From assembly GCA_013151355.1 (NCBI GenBank), contig JAADIL010000277.1:1-41145 (forward strand): 41,145 nt of DNA, in the 5' to 3' direction. The stretch is from Gammaproteobacteria bacterium (lineage in GTDB: Bacteria > Pseudomonadota > Gammaproteobacteria > SZUA-152). The notes below the pieces were generated by a model. That model was not told the DNA's origin. It did not search any database and worked only from the letters and a program-made list of their open reading frames with translations. The position numbers and the translations under genes were made by a program. Shown here in pieces: positions 945 to 29,270 of this stretch (positions are counted from its first letter, which is position 1; each line of letters starts with the position of its first letter).

Positions 945-2306
945 TTATGACGACGCAATATGCCGTCCGTTGCTCATGCCGGAATTTGCTACCGCCAACG
1001 CAAATTCCTCCAGAAATTTCACCTGAACATCTGATTGCACCCAGCGTGGCTCAATGCTGCGCGCGGTTTCCAGAGCATCCAGGGCGGTTTCACCTTCCCA
1101 GATTAATTGCGCAACCAGCATGGTACCGGTGCGCCCCATACCTGCCTTGCAATGCATGGCAATGGCCTCACCCTGTTCAGTCAATCCCCCCATCTGTTCG
1201 CAAAACTGCAAGGCAGCTTCAATGGTGGGCACGCCCATATCCTTGATTGGAAATGCAATTCCCCTGATGTTGTATTCAGTCAGTATGGTCGGATCAATTG
1301 GCCGGGTTGTCAGGGAAACCAGTACGCTGATACCTACTCGCTGTAACGCAGCGAGGTCGTAATCCAGTTCGATTAATAATCCGGGACGTGGCGTACCGGC
1401 CAGATCACCTTTTCTGAGCCAAAGAAAATTGCGTGGCCCAAAGGCATCACTTTTGTATTTCCGGGCCTCTTCGGGTACTTTGGGGCGAACCGTTTCAAGC
1501 GGTGTATCCGGCGTATTGACGACTTCTGTTACCGGATCATTCAGATGTTCATCGGGTGTGTCCGGTGAAGAAACACAACAGGAACCACTGCGAACAAAGT
1601 CTCTGGCAGCTTGTGATTGTGGTGCAGCAAAAAAATCGGCAGTGGGTCGTGCTTCATGAATCCAGCCACCGGCCAATAATGCTGTTTGCCCACCGAGCCT
1701 GATTGCCTGCTTCTGGTTGTGCACAACCACCACCACAGCACGGCGTTCAGCCTCCATAAGCAGATAATCCAGCAGGCGATGTGTTTCTTCCTCACTCAGC
1801 CCGGCGGTGGGTTCGTCCACAAAAATTAATCTGGGGTTGGCTGCTACGGTGCGGGCAATTGCCAGATGGCGCTGCACCGCCAGTGGAAAATCCACGGCAT
1901 TATCGTTCAGCCGGTCGACCAGTTCAGTCAGGCCTGCCTTGCCCAACAGGCGTCGTGCCACATCTCGTTGCTGGGAGATATCCAGTGTATGGCGTTCGGG
2001 CATATCATTAACAATATTTTCACGAATACTGGCCATGATGAGTCTGGTTTTCTGCGCAACAAGTGCAGGCGATTCAGACTCTCTCAAAGGCATGCCGACA
2101 TATTCGACATTGCCCCAGGTGCGCAAGGAAGGGTTGGCATTGTTAAGACCGGAAAGCGTCCGCAACAAGGTCGATTTTCCGGTGCCAGCAGGGCCCAGCA
2201 ACACGGTCATTCCTCGCTCGGGAATGTCCAGGTCGATACCGTTAAGAATAATTTTGTCACCAAAAGCGACACCGTACTCTCGCAGGCACAGAAGCGATTC
2301 GCTCAC
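945..2306 (-). CDS. Fusion protein: N-terminal PstB-like ABC-type ATPase (no permease partner) and C-terminal Cys-based dual-specificity/tyrosine protein phosphatase
   Basis: 453 aa with a GTG start. Walker A is GPAGTGKST, Walker B is LIFVDEPTAGL, H-loop is VVVVHN. The tail QKQAIRLGGQTALLAGGWIHE...FF..P.S..ARDFV parallels PstB. The LSGGQ signature position reads FPLAVQ. A Pro/Thr-rich linker follows, then the PTP loop HCKAGMGRTG (HCx5R[ST]). Confidence 0.85.
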   Translation of the reverse strand: MSESLLCLREYGVAFGDKIILNGIDLDIPERGMTVLLGPAGTGKSTLLRTLSGLNNANPSLRTWGNVEYVGMPLRESESPALVAQKTRLIMASIRENIVNDMPERHTLDISQQRDVARRLLGKAGLTELVDRLNDNAVDFPLAVQRHLAIARTVAANPRLIFVDEPTAGLSEEETHRLLDYLLMEAERRAVVVVVHNQKQAIRLGGQTALLAGGWIHEARPTADFFAAPQSQAARDFVRSGSCCVSSPDTPDEHLNDPVTEVVNTPDTPLETVRPKVPEEARKYKSDAFGPRNFLWLRKGDLAGTPRPGLLIELDYDLAALQRVGISVLVSLTTRPIDPTILTEYNIRGIAFPIKDMGVPTIEAALQFCEQMGGLTEQGEAIAMHCKAGMGRTGTMLVAQLIWEGETALDALETARSIEPRWVQSDVQVKFLEEFALAVANSGMSNGRHIASS

Positions 2307-2851
2307 GCAGCTTCTCCGCTCAGCCCCGGGTCCAGAGAATAAAGCAACGCCTGAACCAGCATCATGACATCATCATGCTGACGGGCATCTACCTCAAACA
2401 CCGGAACATTCATATCCAGCTTGGTCAGGGTTGCCTGATAATCTTCCAGTTTTAATCCCTTGCGTAACTCCATTCTCGTAATGCCGATAGCCACCGCATT
2501 ATTTTGAATAAACTCTTTGAACGAATCGACAAAGGCCTGCAAATCTTCCAGCGGAGCCGGGTTGGCATCATCCAGCATAATAATGACGCCAAGACTGCCG
2601 TCGGTCAGTAAATCCCACATAAAGTTGAAACGTTCCTGTCCTGGTGTGCCATAAAGGTGGAGTGTTTCCCCGTTATCCAGGCGCATGCTGCCGTAATCCA
2701 TTGCTACGGTGGTTAACTCTTTTTTATCTTTTGTTTCATCTGTTGCGGCCTGTTCCGTGGAGAATGGAGCAACATCACTGATGGCGGTAATGGCGGTTGT
2801 TTTACCTGCACCCACTGGTCCGGTAAAAATAATTTTGTGCTGACCGATCAT
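2303..2851 (-). CDS. Small P-loop GTPase of the MglA / CvnD (COG2229) type
   Basis: 182 aa. G1 is GPVGAGKTT. Switch II is LHLYGTPGQERFNFMWD followed by GVIIMLD, as I recall for conservon/MglA-like GTPases. Its stop overlaps the next gene's start (GTGA). Confidence 0.85.
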   Translation of the reverse strand: MIGQHKIIFTGPVGAGKTTAITAISDVAPFSTEQAATDETKDKKELTTVAMDYGSMRLDNGETLHLYGTPGQERFNFMWDLLTDGSLGVIIMLDDANPAPLEDLQAFVDSFKEFIQNNAVAIGITRMELRKGLKLEDYQATLTKLDMNVPVFEVDARQHDDVMMLVQALLYSLDPGLSGEAA

Positions 2852-2889
2852 AATTGGTTCCTGTTTTTCTGGTTGTTATCTAATTGTTG

Positions 2890-4071
2890 TTATTTGCTGA
2901 TGTGGCGCAAAATGGAAGCCAGCAACCCGCGTGTCGGAGACCCGTTTGCCCCTTTGGGTGCGATCAGAGAATCTACCCGGCGTATTGCGGGACCTGTTAG
3001 ACCTGTCGCGACTGTCGCACTGTAAAATGAATACACATCGGCCTGATCAATACCCAGACTCTGAGCGATATCATCCAGTGTGCGCGGGTTTCCCGCCCAT
3101 AAAGAAGCAATACGCATGCCATGCGGTGTATGTGGAAGGCGAGGAAAATTTGGCCAGGATTGCAAATAAAATGACATGGATAAATCGGTACCTTCCGGCA
3201 CACGGCCACGGGCCGTACGCAGGGTCAGATCCCATATCAGGTGATTGATGGATATGGATCTCAGGCCATCAGTTTCACTCGTGGATAAGCCTTTTTTACC
3301 TGTGTTGCGAACACGTTTGATTTCTATTGTAAATTCGTCACTCAGTGTTGCCACTCCCAGGTTCTTCAACTGACTGTCTGTCAAGTCGGTATAGACACGA
3401 TCCTGGTCGGGAAGCAGAATAAGTTGGCGGTTTCTCCAGCACTGCACATGGATGATGCACTGTTGCCCGGCGCCCTTTTTAAGGCCAGAGAGAATGCGCC
3501 CCAGGAGATAATCATCCGGGTTGTAATAAAGCTCAGGTTCTTCCCGCATACTGGTCTGTTGTACTGATTTCAGGCTGATGCTCGTGGTCTTGAATCGGGT
3601 ATTCAGTGCGTGGGCAGCTGCATTAACTCCTGATGTATTTAAATCCATTTTTGTTGATGCTCCCGGGTTGTTGTTGGAGGTCGAGGGTTTGGAGGTCAAG
3701 GGTTCTGTGGAGTCAATTTTCCCGGTGGTCTCGGCCACTGGTGGTAGCCCTGTTACCAGGTCGAAAATGGATTCCCACAATAAATCCAGTTTGGCGGGTT
3801 TGGCGACATAAATAGCCCCTTCAAGTTTTACTGAATTCTCTGACATGACAATGGCAGGCAGATCAGGGTGTTGTCGTTGATATTTTTCCCAGGCATTGGC
3901 TTCGCCATCCAGATCAACAATGCCCAGATGTGCGTCCTCATTCTGCGCAAATTTGCAGCGTCCCTTGAAGATAATTTTAAAAATGGTGTCCATCCTGGAA
4001 ATAGATCGCTCATCCATGCTGGCTAAAATAACTTTTATAGGTGAGTGTACTTCTGTTTTCACGGACTTCAT
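2890..4071 (-). CDS. Response-regulator receiver domain protein with an uncharacterised ~270-aa C-terminal region (possible terminal wHTH)
   Basis: 393 aa. The N-terminus has REC landmarks: ILASMDE (acidic pair), LGIVDLDG (acceptor Asp), AIVMSEN (Ser/Thr position), YVAKPAKL (Lys-Pro). A Ser/Thr/Asn-rich linker follows. The C-terminal ...NPRTLDDIAQSLGIDQADVYSFYSATVATGL looks HTH-like. Confidence 0.7.
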   Translation of the reverse strand: MKSVKTEVHSPIKVILASMDERSISRMDTIFKIIFKGRCKFAQNEDAHLGIVDLDGEANAWEKYQRQHPDLPAIVMSENSVKLEGAIYVAKPAKLDLLWESIFDLVTGLPPVAETTGKIDSTEPLTSKPSTSNNNPGASTKMDLNTSGVNAAAHALNTRFKTTSISLKSVQQTSMREEPELYYNPDDYLLGRILSGLKKGAGQQCIIHVQCWRNRQLILLPDQDRVYTDLTDSQLKNLGVATLSDEFTIEIKRVRNTGKKGLSTSETDGLRSISINHLIWDLTLRTARGRVPEGTDLSMSFYLQSWPNFPRLPHTPHGMRIASLWAGNPRTLDDIAQSLGIDQADVYSFYSATVATGLTGPAIRRVDSLIAPKGANGSPTRGLLASILRHISK

Positions 4072-12684: not shown

Positions 12685-13104
12685 CTACCGAAAATTTATC
12701 TGTAAACGCTGCATTGCCACCAGTTCATCATCGGTATATAAATCGGCCCGAACTTCGTTTGACACTCCTTTCACGGGCAATAGCAGCAATTCTACCAAAT
12801 CACGCTGTTCCTGATTGCTGCTATCAGCAGCAGATTGTCCCATCGCGATCAGCGTTGCCGAATAATGGTAACCGGCCAGGGTAAATACCTTGTCCACAAA
12901 TTCCTTGCGTCCCCCGGGTGGCATAGCCTGCGGTTGTACGGGATATTTTTCGCCGACATTGCGGTAAGCTTCCGCCAACTGCTCCAGTACGGCATGATCC
13001 CCTGCGGGCGCTACCAGCCGGTTTTTGTCGTCACAGGCTGCCAGGCTCAGGATTGCCAGCAATACTATCCACAAGCAGACTGCTTTTTTAATTGAATTTT
13101 GCAT
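12685..13104 (-). CDS. Hypothetical lipoprotein
   Basis: Start at MQNSIKKAVCLWIVLLAILSLAACDD (lipobox LAAC). An alternative start MRHS lies at 13116. The longer ORF-track N-terminus (to 13377) would overlap zapE. I recognise no family. Confidence 0.55.
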   Translation of the reverse strand: MQNSIKKAVCLWIVLLAILSLAACDDKNRLVAPAGDHAVLEQLAEAYRNVGEKYPVQPQAMPPGGRKEFVDKVFTLAGYHYSATLIAMGQSAADSSNQEQRDLVELLLLPVKGVSNEVRADLYTDDELVAMQRLQINFR

Positions 13105-13202
13105 AGAATGTCGCATAGCGCGGCATGATACCGAACACAACGCCAATAAAGCCAGCGGGAACGCGGTCGTTACTTTCAGGGAGCCTTCACGAATTACCCC
13201 GC

Positions 13203-14291
13203 ATGGATCTTGACGCACACTATCAACACGCCCTGATCGACGGGCACTTCGAGCCTGACCCGGCCCAGCTTGCGGCATTGAAATATTTTCAGGCCCTGTC
13301 TTCGCGCCTGCAACAACCGGTACAAAAGGGCCGGATTGCACGGTTGCGCAAAAAATTGGGTAAACACGAGACGACACAGCGCGGGTTGTATTTATGGGGC
13401 GGCGTTGGTCGTGGCAAAACCTGGCTCATGGACATGTTTTTCGATGCCCTGCCTTTTGATAAAAAATTGCGTTTGCACTTTCGTCACTTCATGCGGGAGA
13501 TTCACGACGAACTTACACAACTGGCAGGGCAACGCGACCCGCTACTCATCGTCGCCAAACACTTTGCCCGGCGCACGCGCGTTTTGTGTCTCGATGAACT
13601 TTATGTGGAAGATATTACCGACGCGATGATTCTTTATCGTTTGCTCGACGCACTCAACACCCAGGGAATCGCGCTGGTATTCACCTCCAACCTTGCACCG
13701 GCAGAGCTGTACCAAAATGGTCTGCAACGCGAACATTTTTTACCCGCGATCAAACTCATTGAAACGGGCACCGAGGTCATCCAGTTAAATGGTGATACAG
13801 ACCATCGCCTGCGTAAACTCAAACAGGCCCACACCTGGTTTTCACCGCTCAACACCGCCAGTGAACGCGCTATCGAACAACGTTTTAATGAACTTGCTCC
13901 CGGTACAACACTGATTGACACCCCGTTGCAAATCAATCATCGCCAGATTGGCTGTCGGCGTCGCGTTGACGACGTTGCCTGGTTTGATTTTTATCAACTT
14001 TGCCACGGTCCTCGCGCCAGCGCTGACTATATTGAGTTAGCCCGGCAGTTTCATACGGTATTTGTTTCTGGTGTACCCGGCATGGGCGAAAACGAAGAAG
14101 AATGGGCACACCGGTTTATCAATATGGTGGACGAATTTTATGACCGCCGCGTCAAACTGCTGATCACCGCTGATAACGAACCTGCACACCTGTATCATGG
14201 TCGTCGGCATACCTTTGATTTTCAACGCACGGTGAGTCGTTTGATGGAAATGCGCAGCGATGATTATCTGGCGCAGGCACATCGATCATAA
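13203..14291 (+). CDS. zapE: Cell division protein ZapE (AFG1-like ATPase)
   Basis: Start at MDLDAHYQHALIDGHFEPDPAQ... Walker A is GGVGRGKTWLMD and Walker B is VLCLDELYV, with AFG1 family layout. The ORF-track start at 13125 is probably an upstream extension. Confidence 0.88.
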   Translation: MDLDAHYQHALIDGHFEPDPAQLAALKYFQALSSRLQQPVQKGRIARLRKKLGKHETTQRGLYLWGGVGRGKTWLMDMFFDALPFDKKLRLHFRHFMREIHDELTQLAGQRDPLLIVAKHFARRTRVLCLDELYVEDITDAMILYRLLDALNTQGIALVFTSNLAPAELYQNGLQREHFLPAIKLIETGTEVIQLNGDTDHRLRKLKQAHTWFSPLNTASERAIEQRFNELAPGTTLIDTPLQINHRQIGCRRRVDDVAWFDFYQLCHGPRASADYIELARQFHTVFVSGVPGMGENEEEWAHRFINMVDEFYDRRVKLLITADNEPAHLYHGRRHTFDFQRTVSRLMEMRSDDYLAQAHRS

Positions 14292-14416
14292 TTCAGGCTA
14301 ATTTTTGTTCGTTGGCGAGTATTCACTAACCCACCATAACCAGGTAAAGCCACCAATGCCTGCCAGCAAAGAAGCAAACAAAACTCCGGTCTTTGCCATT
14401 AACAAATATTCCGGTT
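14260..14416. repeat. Direct repeat copy A (zapE 3-prime end plus duplicated nhaA 3-prime end)
   Basis: It aligns with 15172-15327. From 14273/15184 onward I count 8 mismatches in 144 nt by eye, including an ~85-nt identical core. One 1-nt indel lies in the first ~12 nt. Confidence 0.85.
14298..14416 (-). pseudogene. Detached 3-prime fragment of an nhaA allele (last ~39 codons)
   Basis: It translates to ...PEYLLMAKTGVLFASLLAGIGGFTWLWWVSEYSPTNKN*. The real NhaA C-terminus is ...PEYLLMAKTGVLFASLLAGIGGFTWLWWVSEHSPTNKN*. There is no upstream coding continuity. Confidence 0.8.
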
Positions 14417-14464
14417 TATTAATCAGGGTCAGAGACCATTAACAAAATGGGTACGCACTAAAAA

Positions 14465-14680
14465 TCACACGATTTCATCAAGTGATATGCCAATTTCAGA
14501 TTCAAGCTTTTTATATTGAGATTTAATTTCAGCGTAAAATTGGCTCACTTCAACCAAATACTCTTCATATTCTGATCTGTTTCTGAGGGTTTCGCTTTTT
14601 AACAGCTCTTCGTTGTGTCGAACAGCATCTCTTAATGCTTGTACTAAAAGAGGAGCAGCAGCGTTAGAAATCTCTATCAT
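14465..14680 (-). CDS. Tsi2-like immunity protein (small all-helical)
   Basis: 71 aa, predicted helical, with heptad-like Leu/Glu/Lys content. It lies immediately downstream of the Tse2-like gene with a 4-nt overlap. Its size and layout (LLVQALRDAVRHNEELL ... EYEEYLVEVSQFYAEIKSQYKKL) resemble my recollection of P. aeruginosa Tsi2. Confidence 0.6.
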   Translation of the reverse strand: MIEISNAAAPLLVQALRDAVRHNEELLKSETLRNRSEYEEYLVEVSQFYAEIKSQYKKLESEIGISLDEIV

Positions 14681-15129
14681 TTTGCCAGCCTCTCTATTTC
14701 CGCTGCGAAATTTTCAAGAAGATGTCTAAACGTGGCAATTGGCATATCATGTGCCGGGGCTATTGTATAATGGGTAGCCGTGAAAGATTCGTTGTAAGAA
14801 TCTTGAACTATTGCCAACCCGACAGGAAGGCGGGTTCCAGCGGGGATTTTACAGTGAACCCAGTCTTTACCCTTCGGAGTCCCGGGCTTGTCAAATGTGG
14901 AAATACCTCTTGGCCAGTGCTTAACCTTAACCCATCCGTTTTCAATCGTTAAATCTGGCTTGCGTACTTTTCCACTTGACATTTTGAAAGGCTTTTCGAT
15001 CAAGTCAAACAGACCAACGTTTCTCTTTATATTCAAACCTCTCCAAAGGTTAACGGGAACGACGCCTTCAAAATAGCGCTCCAGCACACCCATAGAAATG
15101 AATACATCCTTTAAAGTGGTTGATTCCAT
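14677..15129 (-). CDS. Tse2-like toxin (Tse2 ADP-ribosyltransferase-fold family)
   Basis: 150 aa with RBS AAGGAG. The blocks RGISTFD, IPAGT, VQDSYNESFTATHYTIAPAHDMP and LENF match the blocks GGTSVFD, IPDGT, KQDSYNKRLQATHYTIMPAKPM and LDNF that I recall from P. aeruginosa Tse2. Confidence 0.7.
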   Translation of the reverse strand: MESTTLKDVFISMGVLERYFEGVVPVNLWRGLNIKRNVGLFDLIEKPFKMSSGKVRKPDLTIENGWVKVKHWPRGISTFDKPGTPKGKDWVHCKIPAGTRLPVGLAIVQDSYNESFTATHYTIAPAHDMPIATFRHLLENFAAEIERLAK

Positions 15130-15171
15130 TTGGATCTCCTTCTTGATTTAGTTGATCAGCATATCAAAAAA

Positions 15172-15327
15172 ATGATTATCCGGGCAGGCACACCGATCAT
15201 AATTCAGACTAATTCTTATTCGTTGGCGAATGCTCACTAACCCACCATAACCAGGTAAAGCCACCAATGCCTGCCAGCAAAGAAGCAAACAAAACTCCGG
15301 TCTTTGCCATTAACAAATATTCTGGTT
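15172..15327. repeat. Direct repeat copy B (zapE 3-prime remnant plus the genuine nhaA 3-prime end)
   Basis: See copy A. It contains a dead ...CAC CGA TCA TAA remnant of the zapE end at 15191-15202. That remnant is followed by the real nhaA stop at 15209. Confidence 0.85.
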
Positions 15328-16600
15328 GGTTCGCAAACCCCAGTTCGGCAATGAATATCGCCATGGTGAAACCGATACCCGCCAGCAGTGCTACACCGGC
15401 AATCTGGCTAAAGCAGGTTTGTGCAGGGAGTTGAGCGATACCCAATCTGAGCGCAAGCCAGCTGGCCCCGGCAATACCGATAAATTTCCCCAGCACCAGC
15501 CCGAACACGACTCCCATCGTCACCGGGTGTGTCAGCGTATCACCCAGGCTCGCCAGTTCCATGGGAATACCCGCATTAATGAACGCAAATACAGGGATTA
15601 CCAGGAAAGCCACGGGCATGTGCATTCCGCGTTCCAGTCGCTGCAAAGGTGTTTCTACCTTGTGCACGCTGTTTTCAAGTGTGTGCACCACAGTGCGTAA
15701 ATCATCATTGGTCATGATGCTTTTACCTGGCTGATGACTGGCGTCAAAACGAACCATCAAACTTTTCATATGTTCGCTAAAGCGAACCGGGTCATATTTT
15801 GGACGCGCCGGAATCATAAAGGCTGTCAATACGCCGGCCAGCGTGGCGTGAACACCGGACTCAAGCAGGGCAAACCACAGCAGCACACCGAGCAAAAAAT
15901 AGGGCAGGGGCTGGCGGACACCGGCCCGGTTAAATACGAGCAACACACCCAGTATTATCGCAGCAATGAGTAATGCCTCCCATACCAGCTGCTCGGTATA
16001 AAAAAGCGCGATGATTATTACTGCACCCAGATCATCCACAATTGCCAACGCTACCAAAAAGGTGATCAACGCTCTGGGCACGCGACGGGCCAGCAACACC
16101 AGTGCACCGATAGCGAAGGCAATATCCGTGGCCATGGGAATTCCCCAGCCACGGGCAGCATCGCCACCGTGGTTGAAGGAAAAATAGATCAATGCTGGCA
16201 CCACCATGCCACCAATTGCAGCGATAACAGGCAGCGCAGCCTGACGTGGAATCGCCAATTCACCCACCAGTATTTCGCGTTTGAGTTCCAGTCCTACCAC
16301 AAAGAAAAACAAGGTCATCAAACCATCATTAACCCAGTGTTGCAGTGTTTTTTCCAATACCCAACCACCAACATTGATCCCGATCGGCAGATGCACCCAC
16401 TGCTGATAAAGTCCGGACAAGCCGCTGTTGGCCAGCACCAGTGCCAGAATAGCCATCCCCATCAACAACAGACCACTCGTCGTCTGGCGATGGATAAACT
16501 CCTCGAAAGGAGTGAGTATTTTATTAAAAGACTTTTCCCACGGGGCGTGAAAAACACCTTTTTTTGCAGTGTGCCCGGGCACCTTGTCTTGTTTGCTCAT
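15209..16600 (-). CDS. nhaA: Na+/H+ antiporter NhaA
   Basis: 463 aa polytopic protein. It has NhaA hallmarks including ...VALAIVDDLGAVIIIALFY... (the DD motif helix). Confidence 0.9.
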   Translation of the reverse strand: MSKQDKVPGHTAKKGVFHAPWEKSFNKILTPFEEFIHRQTTSGLLLMGMAILALVLANSGLSGLYQQWVHLPIGINVGGWVLEKTLQHWVNDGLMTLFFFVVGLELKREILVGELAIPRQAALPVIAAIGGMVVPALIYFSFNHGGDAARGWGIPMATDIAFAIGALVLLARRVPRALITFLVALAIVDDLGAVIIIALFYTEQLVWEALLIAAIILGVLLVFNRAGVRQPLPYFLLGVLLWFALLESGVHATLAGVLTAFMIPARPKYDPVRFSEHMKSLMVRFDASHQPGKSIMTNDDLRTVVHTLENSVHKVETPLQRLERGMHMPVAFLVIPVFAFINAGIPMELASLGDTLTHPVTMGVVFGLVLGKFIGIAGASWLALRLGIAQLPAQTCFSQIAGVALLAGIGFTMAIFIAELGFANQPEYLLMAKTGVLFASLLAGIGGFTWLWWVSEHSPTNKN

Positions 16601-21005: not shown

Positions 21006-21061
21006 AAAATAATAATAAATCTGTTTTGTATTTCTGGTTACTGTTTCTGAAGGTCTGGTCA

Positions 21062-21820
21062 ATGAATAAGCAGTGGGTAAAGCGTGCAGCATTGTGCGCT
21101 GTGGCATTAAGTATTGTATTGCTTGGCGCCTGTTCGCGTGAATATACCTCCGAGATGATGAATGCTGCCAAAGATGGCAATTTAAAATTTGTGCAGGCGA
21201 CTGTGCAACGCGGAGCCGATGTCAACGAACGTAGCAATAAAGGTAAAAATGCTTTGATGTTTGCCGCTTCTGAAAATCATCAAGAGGTGGTGCAGTGGTT
21301 GATCGAGCAAGGTGCCGATGTGAATACAGCGGACAATTATGGCACGACGGCGTTAATCGTTGCGGCAACGGCCGGGCATTATGCAGTAGTGGAGTTATTG
21401 TTGGAAAACGGTGCCAATGCGCAAGTGCGTGATGAAAGCGGCGGTGCACCGTTGGTTAATGCGGTTTATTTTGGCCATTCAGAGACTGTACAATTACTGT
21501 TAGATAATTTGCTGAAAGACAAAGCGTCCGGGCTGGACAAGCGTGATGGCGAAGAGTTGCTGATGCTGGGCGCCGGGCTGGGACATACCGATATCGTCAG
21601 TCTTATGGTGAAAGCAGGCATTGATGTCAATGGCCGTGGATTAAAGCAGCGTACCCCGTTAATGGCGGCCGCAGCCTTTGACCGGCCTGAAGTGGCCAAA
21701 GTGTTATTGGCGCAAGGCGCTGATCCGGCAGCGCGTGACGAGGATGGTCAGACTGCGCTCAGTGTGGCAAGGGATAAAGGCAGTGACCAGGTGGCTGCAT
21801 TGCTGGCTGAGGTGCGCTAG
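21062..21820 (+). CDS. Ankyrin-repeat lipoprotein
   Basis: Signal peptide plus lipobox (VALSIVLLGAC). About 6 ANK repeats follow (G.TALM.AA..GH..VV..LL..GADVN). The ATG at 21062 is preferred over 21026. Confidence 0.8.
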   Translation: MNKQWVKRAALCAVALSIVLLGACSREYTSEMMNAAKDGNLKFVQATVQRGADVNERSNKGKNALMFAASENHQEVVQWLIEQGADVNTADNYGTTALIVAATAGHYAVVELLLENGANAQVRDESGGAPLVNAVYFGHSETVQLLLDNLLKDKASGLDKRDGEELLMLGAGLGHTDIVSLMVKAGIDVNGRGLKQRTPLMAAAAFDRPEVAKVLLAQGADPAARDEDGQTALSVARDKGSDQVAALLAEVR

Positions 21821-22612: not shown

Positions 22613-23176
22613 TTATTGTTTAACTCCGGCTTTTTGTAATATATCCAGAATGTTGTTGTGTCCTTCGTTGCGTGCGAGATAAAGTGCCGTGCGCCCATTC
22701 CTGCTTTTCACGTTAATGTTGGCACCGCTGGCAAGCAACAGTTCGAGTATGTCGCTGTAACCACGATTACTCGCCCATAACAGTGGCGTCCAGCCATTTT
22801 TATCAGCCAGTTCGGTGTTGGCTTTGCGCTGCAACAGCAATTGTACGGCGGCAACATTACCCTTGGTGGTGGCGCGCATCAGCGGCGTCCAGCCATCGTC
22901 GTCCTGGGTGTTGATGTCGGCACCGGCATCAATGAGCACCGCCATGGTGGCTGTCTGGTCTTGCCGGGCGGCATGCATGAGCGCCGTCCAGCCAAAATTG
23001 TTGCGTTCATCAACCCGCGCGCCATTGGCCAGATCGGTTTGTACTACAGAGGGGTCACCGTCCAGGGTGTGCTTCATTAATTCTGTATTACCATCGCAGG
23101 CAATCAGCAGGCTGCCCACTGTGGCAAGCAACAGGAGTCGCGTGTACAGGGCGGCGAGGTGAGCGGGTTTTCTCAT
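22613..23176 (-). CDS. Ankyrin-repeat lipoprotein
   Basis: Start at MRKPAHLAALYTRLLLLATVGSLLIAC (lipobox), then about 4-5 ANK repeats. The ORF-track extension to 23308 runs into a MITE. The gene ends 11 nt upstream of the cytochrome ORF (22601), or 35 nt before the preferred ATG at 22577. Confidence 0.8.
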   Translation of the reverse strand: MRKPAHLAALYTRLLLLATVGSLLIACDGNTELMKHTLDGDPSVVQTDLANGARVDERNNFGWTALMHAARQDQTATMAVLIDAGADINTQDDDGWTPLMRATTKGNVAAVQLLLQRKANTELADKNGWTPLLWASNRGYSDILELLLASGANINVKSRNGRTALYLARNEGHNNILDILQKAGVKQ

Positions 23177-23220
23177 GGTGAGTATACATGTCCTGTATGA
23201 GCGGCAGTACAAAGACAGGC

Positions 23221-23389
23221 TCCCGGAGCCTGTCGGACTCAGGATGAACCCGCTGCGAAAAAACCGTTTTGACCCGTTTTTTCGATCACTTTCGTTAAAT
23301 ATACTCAATGTTCACCTCAAATAACCGAAAAAATGGGTTTAAAGTGCTCTTTTCTCGCTACGATCACCCGGATTCGACAGGTTCCCGGG
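23221..23389. mobile_element. MITE-like element, family A, copy 2
   Basis: CCCGGAGCCTGTCGGACTCAGGATGAAC... to ...GATTCGACAGGTTCCCGGG. It has imperfect terminal inverted repeats and an interior homologous to 8693-8856. Confidence 0.7.
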
Positions 23390-29137: not shown

Positions 29138-29270
29138 GAAAATCCAACGCAAAGGTGCGAAGACGCAGAGCGCGCAAAGAGTGAGAGGATAACGAGCAAA
29201 AGAGATAAAAAATTTCAAATGCTGTGAATCTCTGCATTCCCTGCCGCTTCGCGTCTTTGCGTTGGATTTT
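29138..29270. mobile_element. MITE-like element, family C, copy 1
   Basis: The inverted arms are GAAAATCCAACGCAAAGGTGCGAAGACGCAGAG and (reverse complement) TAAAATCCAACGCAAAGACGCGAAGCGGCAG. The terminal 17 nt are identical. Confidence 0.65.

Follow-up and report, generated by a model that had tools for sequence, protein, structure and literature searches.

Tse2 is the founding cytoplasmic effector of type VI secretion systems (T6SS). In Pseudomonas aeruginosa its gene stands first in a bicistron with that of its small immunity protein, Tsi2 (PA2702/PA2703; PDB 5AKO, 3RQ9). The two genes lie thousands of genes away from the H1-T6SS and from Hcp1 (PA0085), on which Tse2, itself a small protein, depends (PMC4899435). 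Reviews call Tse2 NAD-dependent and ADP-ribosyltransferase-like, citing Robb et al. 2016 (PMC6099711; PMC4899435), and its cellular target is still undefined in the literature consulted. A second group of described systems is the toxin-antitoxin (TA) cassettes of chromosomal integrons, such as parDE, higBA and ccdAB in Vibrio. These cassettes are enriched in chromosomal integrons, have a stabilising action and classically carry their own promoter (bioRxiv 10.1101/2022.08.03.502626). Here we consider a gene pair in a stretch of 41,145 nucleotides (nt), called the window below, which is contig JAADIL010000277.1 (GCA_013151355.1) of a Gammaproteobacteria bacterium in the SZUA-152 lineage. The pair sits between zapE and nhaA. 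We favour, as rather probable, the reading that it is a horizontally mobile toxin-immunity module of the Tse2/Tsi2 superfamily, most likely with a selfish, TA-like role in addiction or stabilisation.

The first gene of the pair (14677..15129, minus strand) encodes a basic protein of 150 amino acids (aa) with an isoelectric point (pI) of 9.4. This protein is a firm member of the Tse2 family. Its sole Pfam match is PF18648 (ADPRTs_Tse2), which spans profile positions 13-134 of 137 with E=8.7e-24 and 85.2 bits against a cutoff of 26.6. A sequence search of the PDB returns only Tse2 (5AKO_C), at E=5e-9 with the single sequence, and a profile of 38 homologues matches the same chain at E=1.7e-13. 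In both searches the alignment is limited to the C-terminal half, and identity to Tse2 is 26%. The AlphaFold2 (AF2) model (pLDDT 92, pTM 0.86) goes further. Foldseek aligns it with 5AKO_C over 148 columns (TM 0.72/0.70, rmsd 2.9), the only PDB hit at E<0.001, so the Tse2 fold is predicted to extend over the full length. An initial annotation of this DNA had called the open reading frame (ORF) Tse2-like from five sequence blocks and had proposed a comparison with the Pfam Tse2 family. The Pfam score of 85 bits, the 5AKO_C match and the predicted fold all bear this out. Each of the five blocks is seen in the HMMER alignment to 5AKO_C (window toxin/Tse2: rGiStFD/GGTSVFD, IPaGT/IPDGT, QDSYN/QDSYN, ATHYTIaPA/ATHYTIMPA and ENF/DNF).

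It is also worth considering the residues that matter for toxicity. The Tse2 T79A/S80A variant is non-toxic, yet it is stable and secreted (Li et al. 2012; PMC3325213). T79 and S80 align with I76 and S77 of the window toxin, and S77 is invariant in the 38 homologues. R30, S77 and D110 might form an 'R-S-acid' site. In NCBI and UniRef, automatic annotation already labels homologues 'Tse2 family ADP-ribosyltransferase toxin', so the toxin joins a known family.

The second gene (14465..14680, minus strand) encodes an acidic two-helix protein of 71 aa (pI 4.7), which we presume to be the immunity protein or antitoxin. The AF2 model (pLDDT 85) has helices at residues 7-26 and 34-62. The charges of the two proteins are opposed (pI 4.66 for the partner against 9.4 for the toxin), and in homologous loci the partner gene is always downstream of the toxin gene. 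The initial annotation had taken the partner to be Tsi2-like, and here the evidence divides. The protein has no match in Pfam, in the PDB by single sequence, or by Foldseek with its AF2 model, and two partner-family profiles run against the PDB leave the Tsi2 chains unmatched at E<=10. On the other side, the NCBIfam model NF052667 (Tsi2_fam, 'Tsi2 family anti-toxin') matches it colinearly over 1-63 of 73 positions with E=6e-5 and 23.4 bits, under the curated cutoff of 70. As a control, genuine Tsi2 scores 98.4 bits on this model; the reference sequence was taken from the PDB and matches 5AKO_A at 100%. The partner-family profile was then run against 1.84 billion representative proteins, which gave 52 clusters, and 31 representatives were aligned. 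NF052667 matches 8 of these 31 (best E=1.4e-9). Aligned with Tsi2 by hhalign, the 31 representatives give 64 colinear columns at E=5.7e-4, with a probability of just 29.5%. A comparison with the Tse2-Tsi2 structure, also proposed in the initial annotation, succeeds for the toxin through 5AKO_C and gives a weak signal for the partner. We argue that the partner is probably a remote homologue of Tsi2, but membership of that family is not established. Its homologues are annotated merely as hypothetical, and the kinship appears to be undescribed in the literature searched.

The two ORFs share 4 nt (ATGA) with the toxin gene first, exactly as the initial annotation had it. Both start codons are preceded by Shine-Dalgarno-like sequences (AAGGAG for the 150-aa ORF and GAGAGG for the 71-aa ORF). 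The overlap is kept in four related loci: Methylocaldum marinum (L001), Hahella (L007), a 4.6-Mb metagenomic chromosome (L008) and L061. When the pairs in L001, L007, L008, L009, Gynuella sunshinyii (L060) and L061 are compared with the window pair, the proportion of nonsynonymous differences (pN) is 0.02-0.19 against a saturated synonymous proportion (pS) of 0.75-0.99, and pN of the partner is 0.02-0.17. On these values both ORFs are genuine and evolve under purifying selection. The base composition of the pair is foreign to its chromosome. GC content is 0.44 in the toxin gene and 0.36 in the partner gene, and at third codon positions (GC3) it is 0.43 and 0.28. The neighbours zapE, nhaA, trmL, pyrD and rho have a GC of ~0.51 and a GC3 of 0.53-0.56. 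The AT-richness relative to zapE and nhaA that had been judged by eye is therefore real, and the GC3 values of 0.28 and 0.43 against ~0.54 are the reason we assign the pair a foreign origin.

The locus resembles Tse2-Tsi2 in several respects. The toxins belong to one Pfam family and are predicted to share the fold over their whole length, the GxSxFD, IPxGT, QDSYN and ATHYTIxPA blocks, and the serine equivalent to S80. In each case a basic toxin is followed by a small, acidic, all-helical partner in a toxin-first bicistron that is unlinked to T6SS genes. The differences are that the N-terminal half of the window toxin cannot be aligned with Tse2 by sequence, that the partner stays below the threshold of the Tsi2 family, that the subfamily found here travels as integron cassettes, and that none of the flanks read shows a T6SS gene.

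The integron evidence comes from the relatives. Database searches gave 154 toxin relatives and 92 partner relatives. Both genes occur together at 70-94% aa identity in Methylocaldum marinum (sS8_0031/0030), Hahella sp. CCB-MM4, Sessilibacter, Gynuella sunshinyii, Rheinheimera, Teredinibacter, a metagenome-assembled genome (MAG) of the Cellvibrionaceae and many metagenomic contigs. The toxin homologues are single-domain proteins of 148-167 aa and have no PAAR, VgrG or Rhs fusion. In L001, L008 and L060 the pair lies within runs of small ORFs on the same strand, which encode acetyltransferases, a glyoxalase, Imm33, TIR, BrnT/BrnA and many hypothetical proteins. We delimited 19 attC sites in these arrays by hand. 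They are 59-117 nt long. Their R'' box ends in AAC (mostly TAAC) and often holds the stop codon of the preceding gene, and their R' box starts with GTT (mostly GTTAG, GTTAT or GTTGG). In L005 the attC lying upstream of the pair has a fold z-score of -8. Trained on the 19 sites, a covariance model picks up additional sites outside its training set in L001, L006, L060 and L061. All its matches at E<0.5 are on the coding strand, and the sole minus-strand match is in L062 at E=0.79. A home-made finder based on a regular expression plus a stem had been tried before the covariance model replaced it; it was neither sensitive nor specific, and its array counts were near those of shuffled controls.

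The pairs in L001, L008 and L060 each have their own attC, and in the array copies the distance from the G|TT crossover to the ATG is ~30-36 nt, with a ribosome-binding site (RBS) only. For these two reasons the pair in these arrays is a promoterless integron gene cassette. The flanks read contain no integrase gene in any of the three, which means that the arrays are either like clusters of attC sites lacking an integrase (CALIN) or have a distant intI. The initial annotation had spoken of a stand-alone cassette, and this turns out to be true more literally than was meant, since the same pair is an integron gene cassette in other genomes. A literature search found no paper tying Tse2 to integron cassettes, and PF18648 was named only in an unrelated methods paper. 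The occurrence of this subfamily as integron cassettes appears to be new relative to the literature searched, as does a copy outside an integron with a duplication of ~150 nt and no attC. As a separate observation, the non-coding head of the cassette array in L008 (2195-3031) holds two copies of a ~60-nt repeat (TTATCAGAYATYGATAGATGTACTAAGCTAAACAAGAGA...), with no integrase gene nearby.

Not every relative is in an array. In Hahella (L007) the setting is not an integron, and a terminator hairpin follows the partner gene. In a Pseudoalteromonas chromid a 52%-identical pair stands alone between housekeeping genes, and this is the only plasmid match. L062 has the pair in a region that resembles a defence island, with a 1226-aa reverse-transcriptase protein, ParE, a helix-turn-helix (HTH) protein and two helicases. 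A second and more distant Tse2-family pair (160 aa + 75 aa) is found in the same contig at 11768-12464 (minus strand), 1.5 kb from the first. In three loci the toxin gene is broken and the partner is intact: L009:1001-1453 has an in-frame TAA, L060:9553-10004 is split into 42+101 aa, and L062:9555-10000 retains 88 aa.

The window copy itself is not a cassette, because its 3' end has no attC of the form R''-L''...L'-R' (RYYYAAC...GTTRRRY) and its neighbours are housekeeping genes. It is either a former cassette or an attC-less derivative of one. The covariance model (R1) has 0 matches at E<=1 across the 41 kb, and with filters off it gives <=4.3 bits around the pair, which is noise. DNA similarity to cassettes elsewhere (blastn) is confined to 15156-14472, that is, to the coding region and the RBS leader. 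The 5' leader (15130..15161, minus strand) contains the RBS AAGGAG, and its homology to the 5' ends of the cassettes stops at ~15156. It reads 'GCTGATCAAC..AAGGAGATCCAAATG' here against 'G|TTAGCGAYCAAT..AAGGAGATCAACAATG' in L001, L005 and L008. At the other end the insert has a 48-nt 3' tail (14417..14464, minus strand) without attC or terminator. We considered whether this tail might be an attC remnant and rejected the idea: it does not fold (z -0.7 and -1.1) and the covariance model shows only noise.

A direct repeat, which the initial annotation had not recorded, brackets the pair. Its copies lie at 14273-14416 and 15184-15327 (144 nt, 94% identity), and it extends to ~156 nt if one indel is allowed. 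In the left copy (14260..14416) the real 3' end of zapE, which runs to 14291, is followed by a 6-nt spacer and then by a pseudo-nhaA tail made up of the last 119 nt of that gene, stop codon included (14298-14416). In the right copy (15172..15327) a pseudo-zapE tail (15172-15202, ~31 nt, with one nt deleted) comes before a 6-nt spacer, and the real 3' end of nhaA follows from 15209. At an uninterrupted zapE/nhaA junction only 6 nt would separate the convergent stop codons. An element inserted at such a point would disrupt a gene unless the gene ends were duplicated, and here both genes are intact because the ~150-nt duplication supplies those ends. An independent contig from another run (L144, SRR25425417) has the junction from nhaA through the pseudo-zapE tail to the toxin gene at 99.6% identity. 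Since it reproduces one of the junctions, the architecture is not an assembly artefact.

How the duplication arose is harder to say. The divergence between the copies is patchy: the inner ~90 nt show 0-1 differences and the outer ~53 nt ~9. We tried a simple recent tandem duplication as the complete explanation and rejected it, because divergence between the copies is so strongly non-uniform. In the last 12 codons of nhaA 4 of the 5 differences between copies are at third positions, and both copies read ...VSE[H/Y]SPTNKN-stop. The non-functional left tail has the sequence common to relatives (the nhaA-tail remnants in L012, L014 and L015), and the functional right copy is the outlier. The point where the cassette meets the pseudo-nhaA is an AAC triplet (TAAAC|CGG, against CCAAC|CAG in the native sequence). 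The cassette tail has 11 nt (TTTGTTAATGG) in common with nhaA. The AAC junction and the sharing of TTTGTTAATGG may be microhomology or chance. One can imagine an old duplication followed by gene conversion of its inner part. Alternatively, a circular or linear foreign fragment with a homologous segment from a diverged relative may have integrated, either in the manner of Campbell or by homology-facilitated illegitimate recombination.

The closest ZapE relatives found are in uncultured gammaproteobacterial MAGs, 72-85% identical, and these do not have nhaA beside zapE. Immediately behind the zapE stop, four of them (L012, L014, L015 and L016) have nested remnants of the nhaA 3' tail, ~17-80 nt long, and L014 has lost the stop codon. 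That relatives keep nhaA tails after zapE argues that the junction is an old rearrangement point. In a search for an empty site there was no exact NhaA record, and the metagenome NhaA relatives (<=80% identical) were not syntenic. A contig with 98% identity (L108) extends over no more than trmL and the 5' half of nhaA.

Two side observations concern the same relatives. A conserved three-gene operon at 945-4071 of the window (minus strand) is inverted relative to L012:6674-9791 and L014:7424-10532, where it directly follows zapE, and one breakpoint of the inversion is the zapE/nhaA junction that holds the cassette. Its products are a ~390-aa protein without a Pfam match, a Ras/Roc-like GTPase of 182 aa, and a 453-aa protein that joins an ABC-ATPase to a DSP-PTPase, the latter of the Tc-R-P type of 'polymorphic toxin system'. 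At L012:6173-6330 there is an insert like a miniature inverted-repeat transposable element, with terminal inverted repeats of ~27 nt (GGGGGGGTGTTAACAATCATTTTGACAG ... CTGTCAAAAAATTGTTAACGCCCCC); it is absent from L014, which is otherwise colinear.

It is useful to compare the window copy with cassettes known to lie outside integrons. Recchia and Hall reportedly described integron cassettes inserted at secondary sites, that is, at neither attI nor attC, where they are immobilised as no recombination site is regenerated. The window copy is like these in that it lies outside any integron and is oriented for transcription from an upstream host gene. The canonical secondary-site insertion is conservative, though. 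It keeps most of attC and makes no target duplication, whereas here attC is undetectable and ~150 nt are duplicated. Duplicated ends of convergent genes together with a missing attC may make this locus a small and checkable example of cassette fixation outside integrons.

The expression of the pair has to be explained too. The toxin gene begins 80 nt downstream of the nhaA stop on the same strand. In this 80-nt gap no sigma-70-like promoter and no terminator are predicted, which is why read-through from nhaA would be the simplest source of expression.

We can now set out the mechanism we favour, in which the pair acts as an addiction module. Judged from Tse2, the 150-aa protein, with its ADP-ribosyltransferase-like fold, would arrest growth as a toxin that acts in the cytoplasm. 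The acidic 71-aa hairpin would be translated by ATGA coupling and would bind and neutralise the toxin one-to-one, occluding the active cleft, as judged from Tse2-Tsi2. In other gammaproteobacteria the module moves as a promoterless cassette bearing attC. The window copy, of foreign composition, has lost its attC or never had one, and its genes would be co-transcribed by read-through from nhaA. RecA recombination between the flanking repeats could excise the module cleanly and restore the ancestral zapE/nhaA junction. A toxin that outlasts its partner would then penalise loss of the module, and this would explain its persistence at the site. We infer for the window pair the toxicity, the neutralisation by binding, the co-transcription, the addiction role and the mode of insertion.

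The likeness to the TA cassettes of chromosomal integrons is part of this argument. Like them, the pair elsewhere is an attC-bound unit of toxin and neutraliser in large arrays, nearly absent from plasmids and absent from phages, and stabilisation against loss is expected of both. The known cassettes have their own promoter and often the antitoxin first, whereas pairs of the window type have a ~35-nt RBS leader and the toxin first. Classical type II TA toxins do not include the Tse2 family either. The window pair has no promoter-like site upstream, and its partner has no HTH, ribbon-helix-helix (RHH) or AbrB match in Pfam or NCBIfam, which sets it apart from type II TA systems.

Four points must be counted against an addiction module that arrived in this way. 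A cassette with a ~35-nt leader and no predicted promoter fits silent cargo better than an autoregulated TA system. The toxin-first order, along with intact partners beside broken toxins in L009, L060 and L062, is at least as typical of effector-immunity pairs. The link between partner and Tsi2 falls under the curated thresholds. Finally, the patchy divergence of the repeat is not what a simple recent duplication predicts.

The strongest competitor follows from the first two of these points. The pair could be T6SS cargo, an effector-immunity pair whose 150-aa protein is loaded into Hcp and injected by a T6SS encoded elsewhere, while the 71-aa protein protects self and kin and integrons shuffle the arsenals. 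Family and fold are those of Tse2, the founding substrate of the H1-T6SS, and the toxin-first order with coupled immunity is that of tse2-tsi2. The intact partners beside disrupted toxins resemble orphan immunity genes kept for defence, and the cassette is promoterless. The initial annotation had stressed that the pair has no T6SS context. It is true that a Pfam scan of the window finds no VgrG, Hcp, PAAR or T6SS core gene, but the emphasis was overstated. The archetype tse2/tsi2 is itself unlinked to the H1-T6SS, so missing linkage is normal (PMC4899435) and a T6SS-free 41 kb does not separate the hypotheses. What does count against T6SS cargo is that in eight related loci, too, the 6-12 kb to each side are free of VgrG, Hcp, PAAR and Tss genes, and that the homologues are single-domain proteins with no fusion to PAAR, VgrG or Rhs. 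Moreover, at 26% identity to Tse2 and with an N-terminal half that cannot be aligned by sequence, recognition by Hcp need not be conserved. We regard secretion as quite possible though less likely, and for the role of the window pair we rank addiction above it.

A bolder version of the addiction reading can also be stated. Modules of the Tse2/Tsi2 type might be primarily integron-borne, T6SS-independent cassettes for addiction or 'abortive excision' in marine gammaproteobacteria, from which the P. aeruginosa effector was co-opted later. In that case the window copy would record a cassette's integrase-independent exit from an integron and its fixation at a core-genome site with a target duplication of ~150 nt, a structure that recombination between the repeats could reverse and that the toxin would keep in place. 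We consider this doubtful as a whole and offer it as speculation.

Next there is defence against phages. Here the pair would be an abortive-infection module in which infection titrates or degrades the immunity protein and so frees the toxin. Chromosomal integrons are reported to be reservoirs of compact defence systems (bioRxiv 10.1101/2024.07.02.601686), and the setting of the L062 copy, with its reverse transcriptase, ParE and helicases, would suit such a role. However, neither protein matches PADLOC-DB, and the same report mentions neither Tse2, nor T6SS, nor ADP-ribosylation. No homologue of the pair is phage-borne in PHROGs or in a phage genome collection, and the pair includes no sensor component. 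This makes an anti-phage role improbable.

The last alternative, that the locus is an artefact of assembly or annotation (two pieces falsely joined, or ORFs that arose by chance in an AT-rich spacer), is refuted, since although a long flanking repeat could in principle mislead an assembler, L144 from another run has the nhaA-cassette junction at 99.6% identity, and the 154 toxin and 92 partner homologues are under strong purifying selection.

The locus has some wider interest. A compact and conserved subfamily without a T6SS gene in the flanks read is simple material for studying the function of the Tse2 fold. A further question that it poses is whether integrons exchange effector-immunity pairs and TA modules as one and the same currency. 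We see these findings as useful but incremental.

The rest of the window is ordinary chromosome. It includes sulfite reductase, PAPS reductase, rlmL, zapE, nhaA, trmL, pyrD, rho, ppa, lptE, holA, rlmH, maf, rng and yhdP. Thirty further long ORFs of the window, rlmL not among them, went through a Pfam scan, in which the ORFs with a match fell into housekeeping families. The assignment of rlmL comes from its closest-relative match and not from Pfam. The window has no tRNA genes. The gene directly upstream of the pair on the same strand is nhaA, a Na+/H+ antiporter (15209..16600, minus strand; PF06965, E=2e-146). The convergent neighbour on the other side is zapE, an intact AFG1-like ATPase (13125..14291, plus strand; PF03969, E=1e-126).

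Some minor features of the window must be noted. A 230-aa ORF (12685-13377, minus strand) overlaps the start of zapE by ~250 nt and has no Pfam match. Its relatives align from residue ~73, which suggests that the gene is probably shorter, and it is conserved beside zapE in all relatives. Between ppa and lptE lies a 126-nt element (29142-29267) that has an inner stem and whose 7-nt ends are perfectly complementary (ATCCAAC...GTTGGAT). Only the crude attC finder flagged it, while the covariance model did not, so it is probably an unrelated hairpin. Two ankyrin-repeat proteins are encoded among the housekeeping genes at 21026-21820 (plus strand) and 22613-23308 (minus strand), with Ank_2 matches of E=4e-45 and 5e-36. 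Such proteins are unusual for free-living gammaproteobacteria and are a hint of a host-associated lifestyle.

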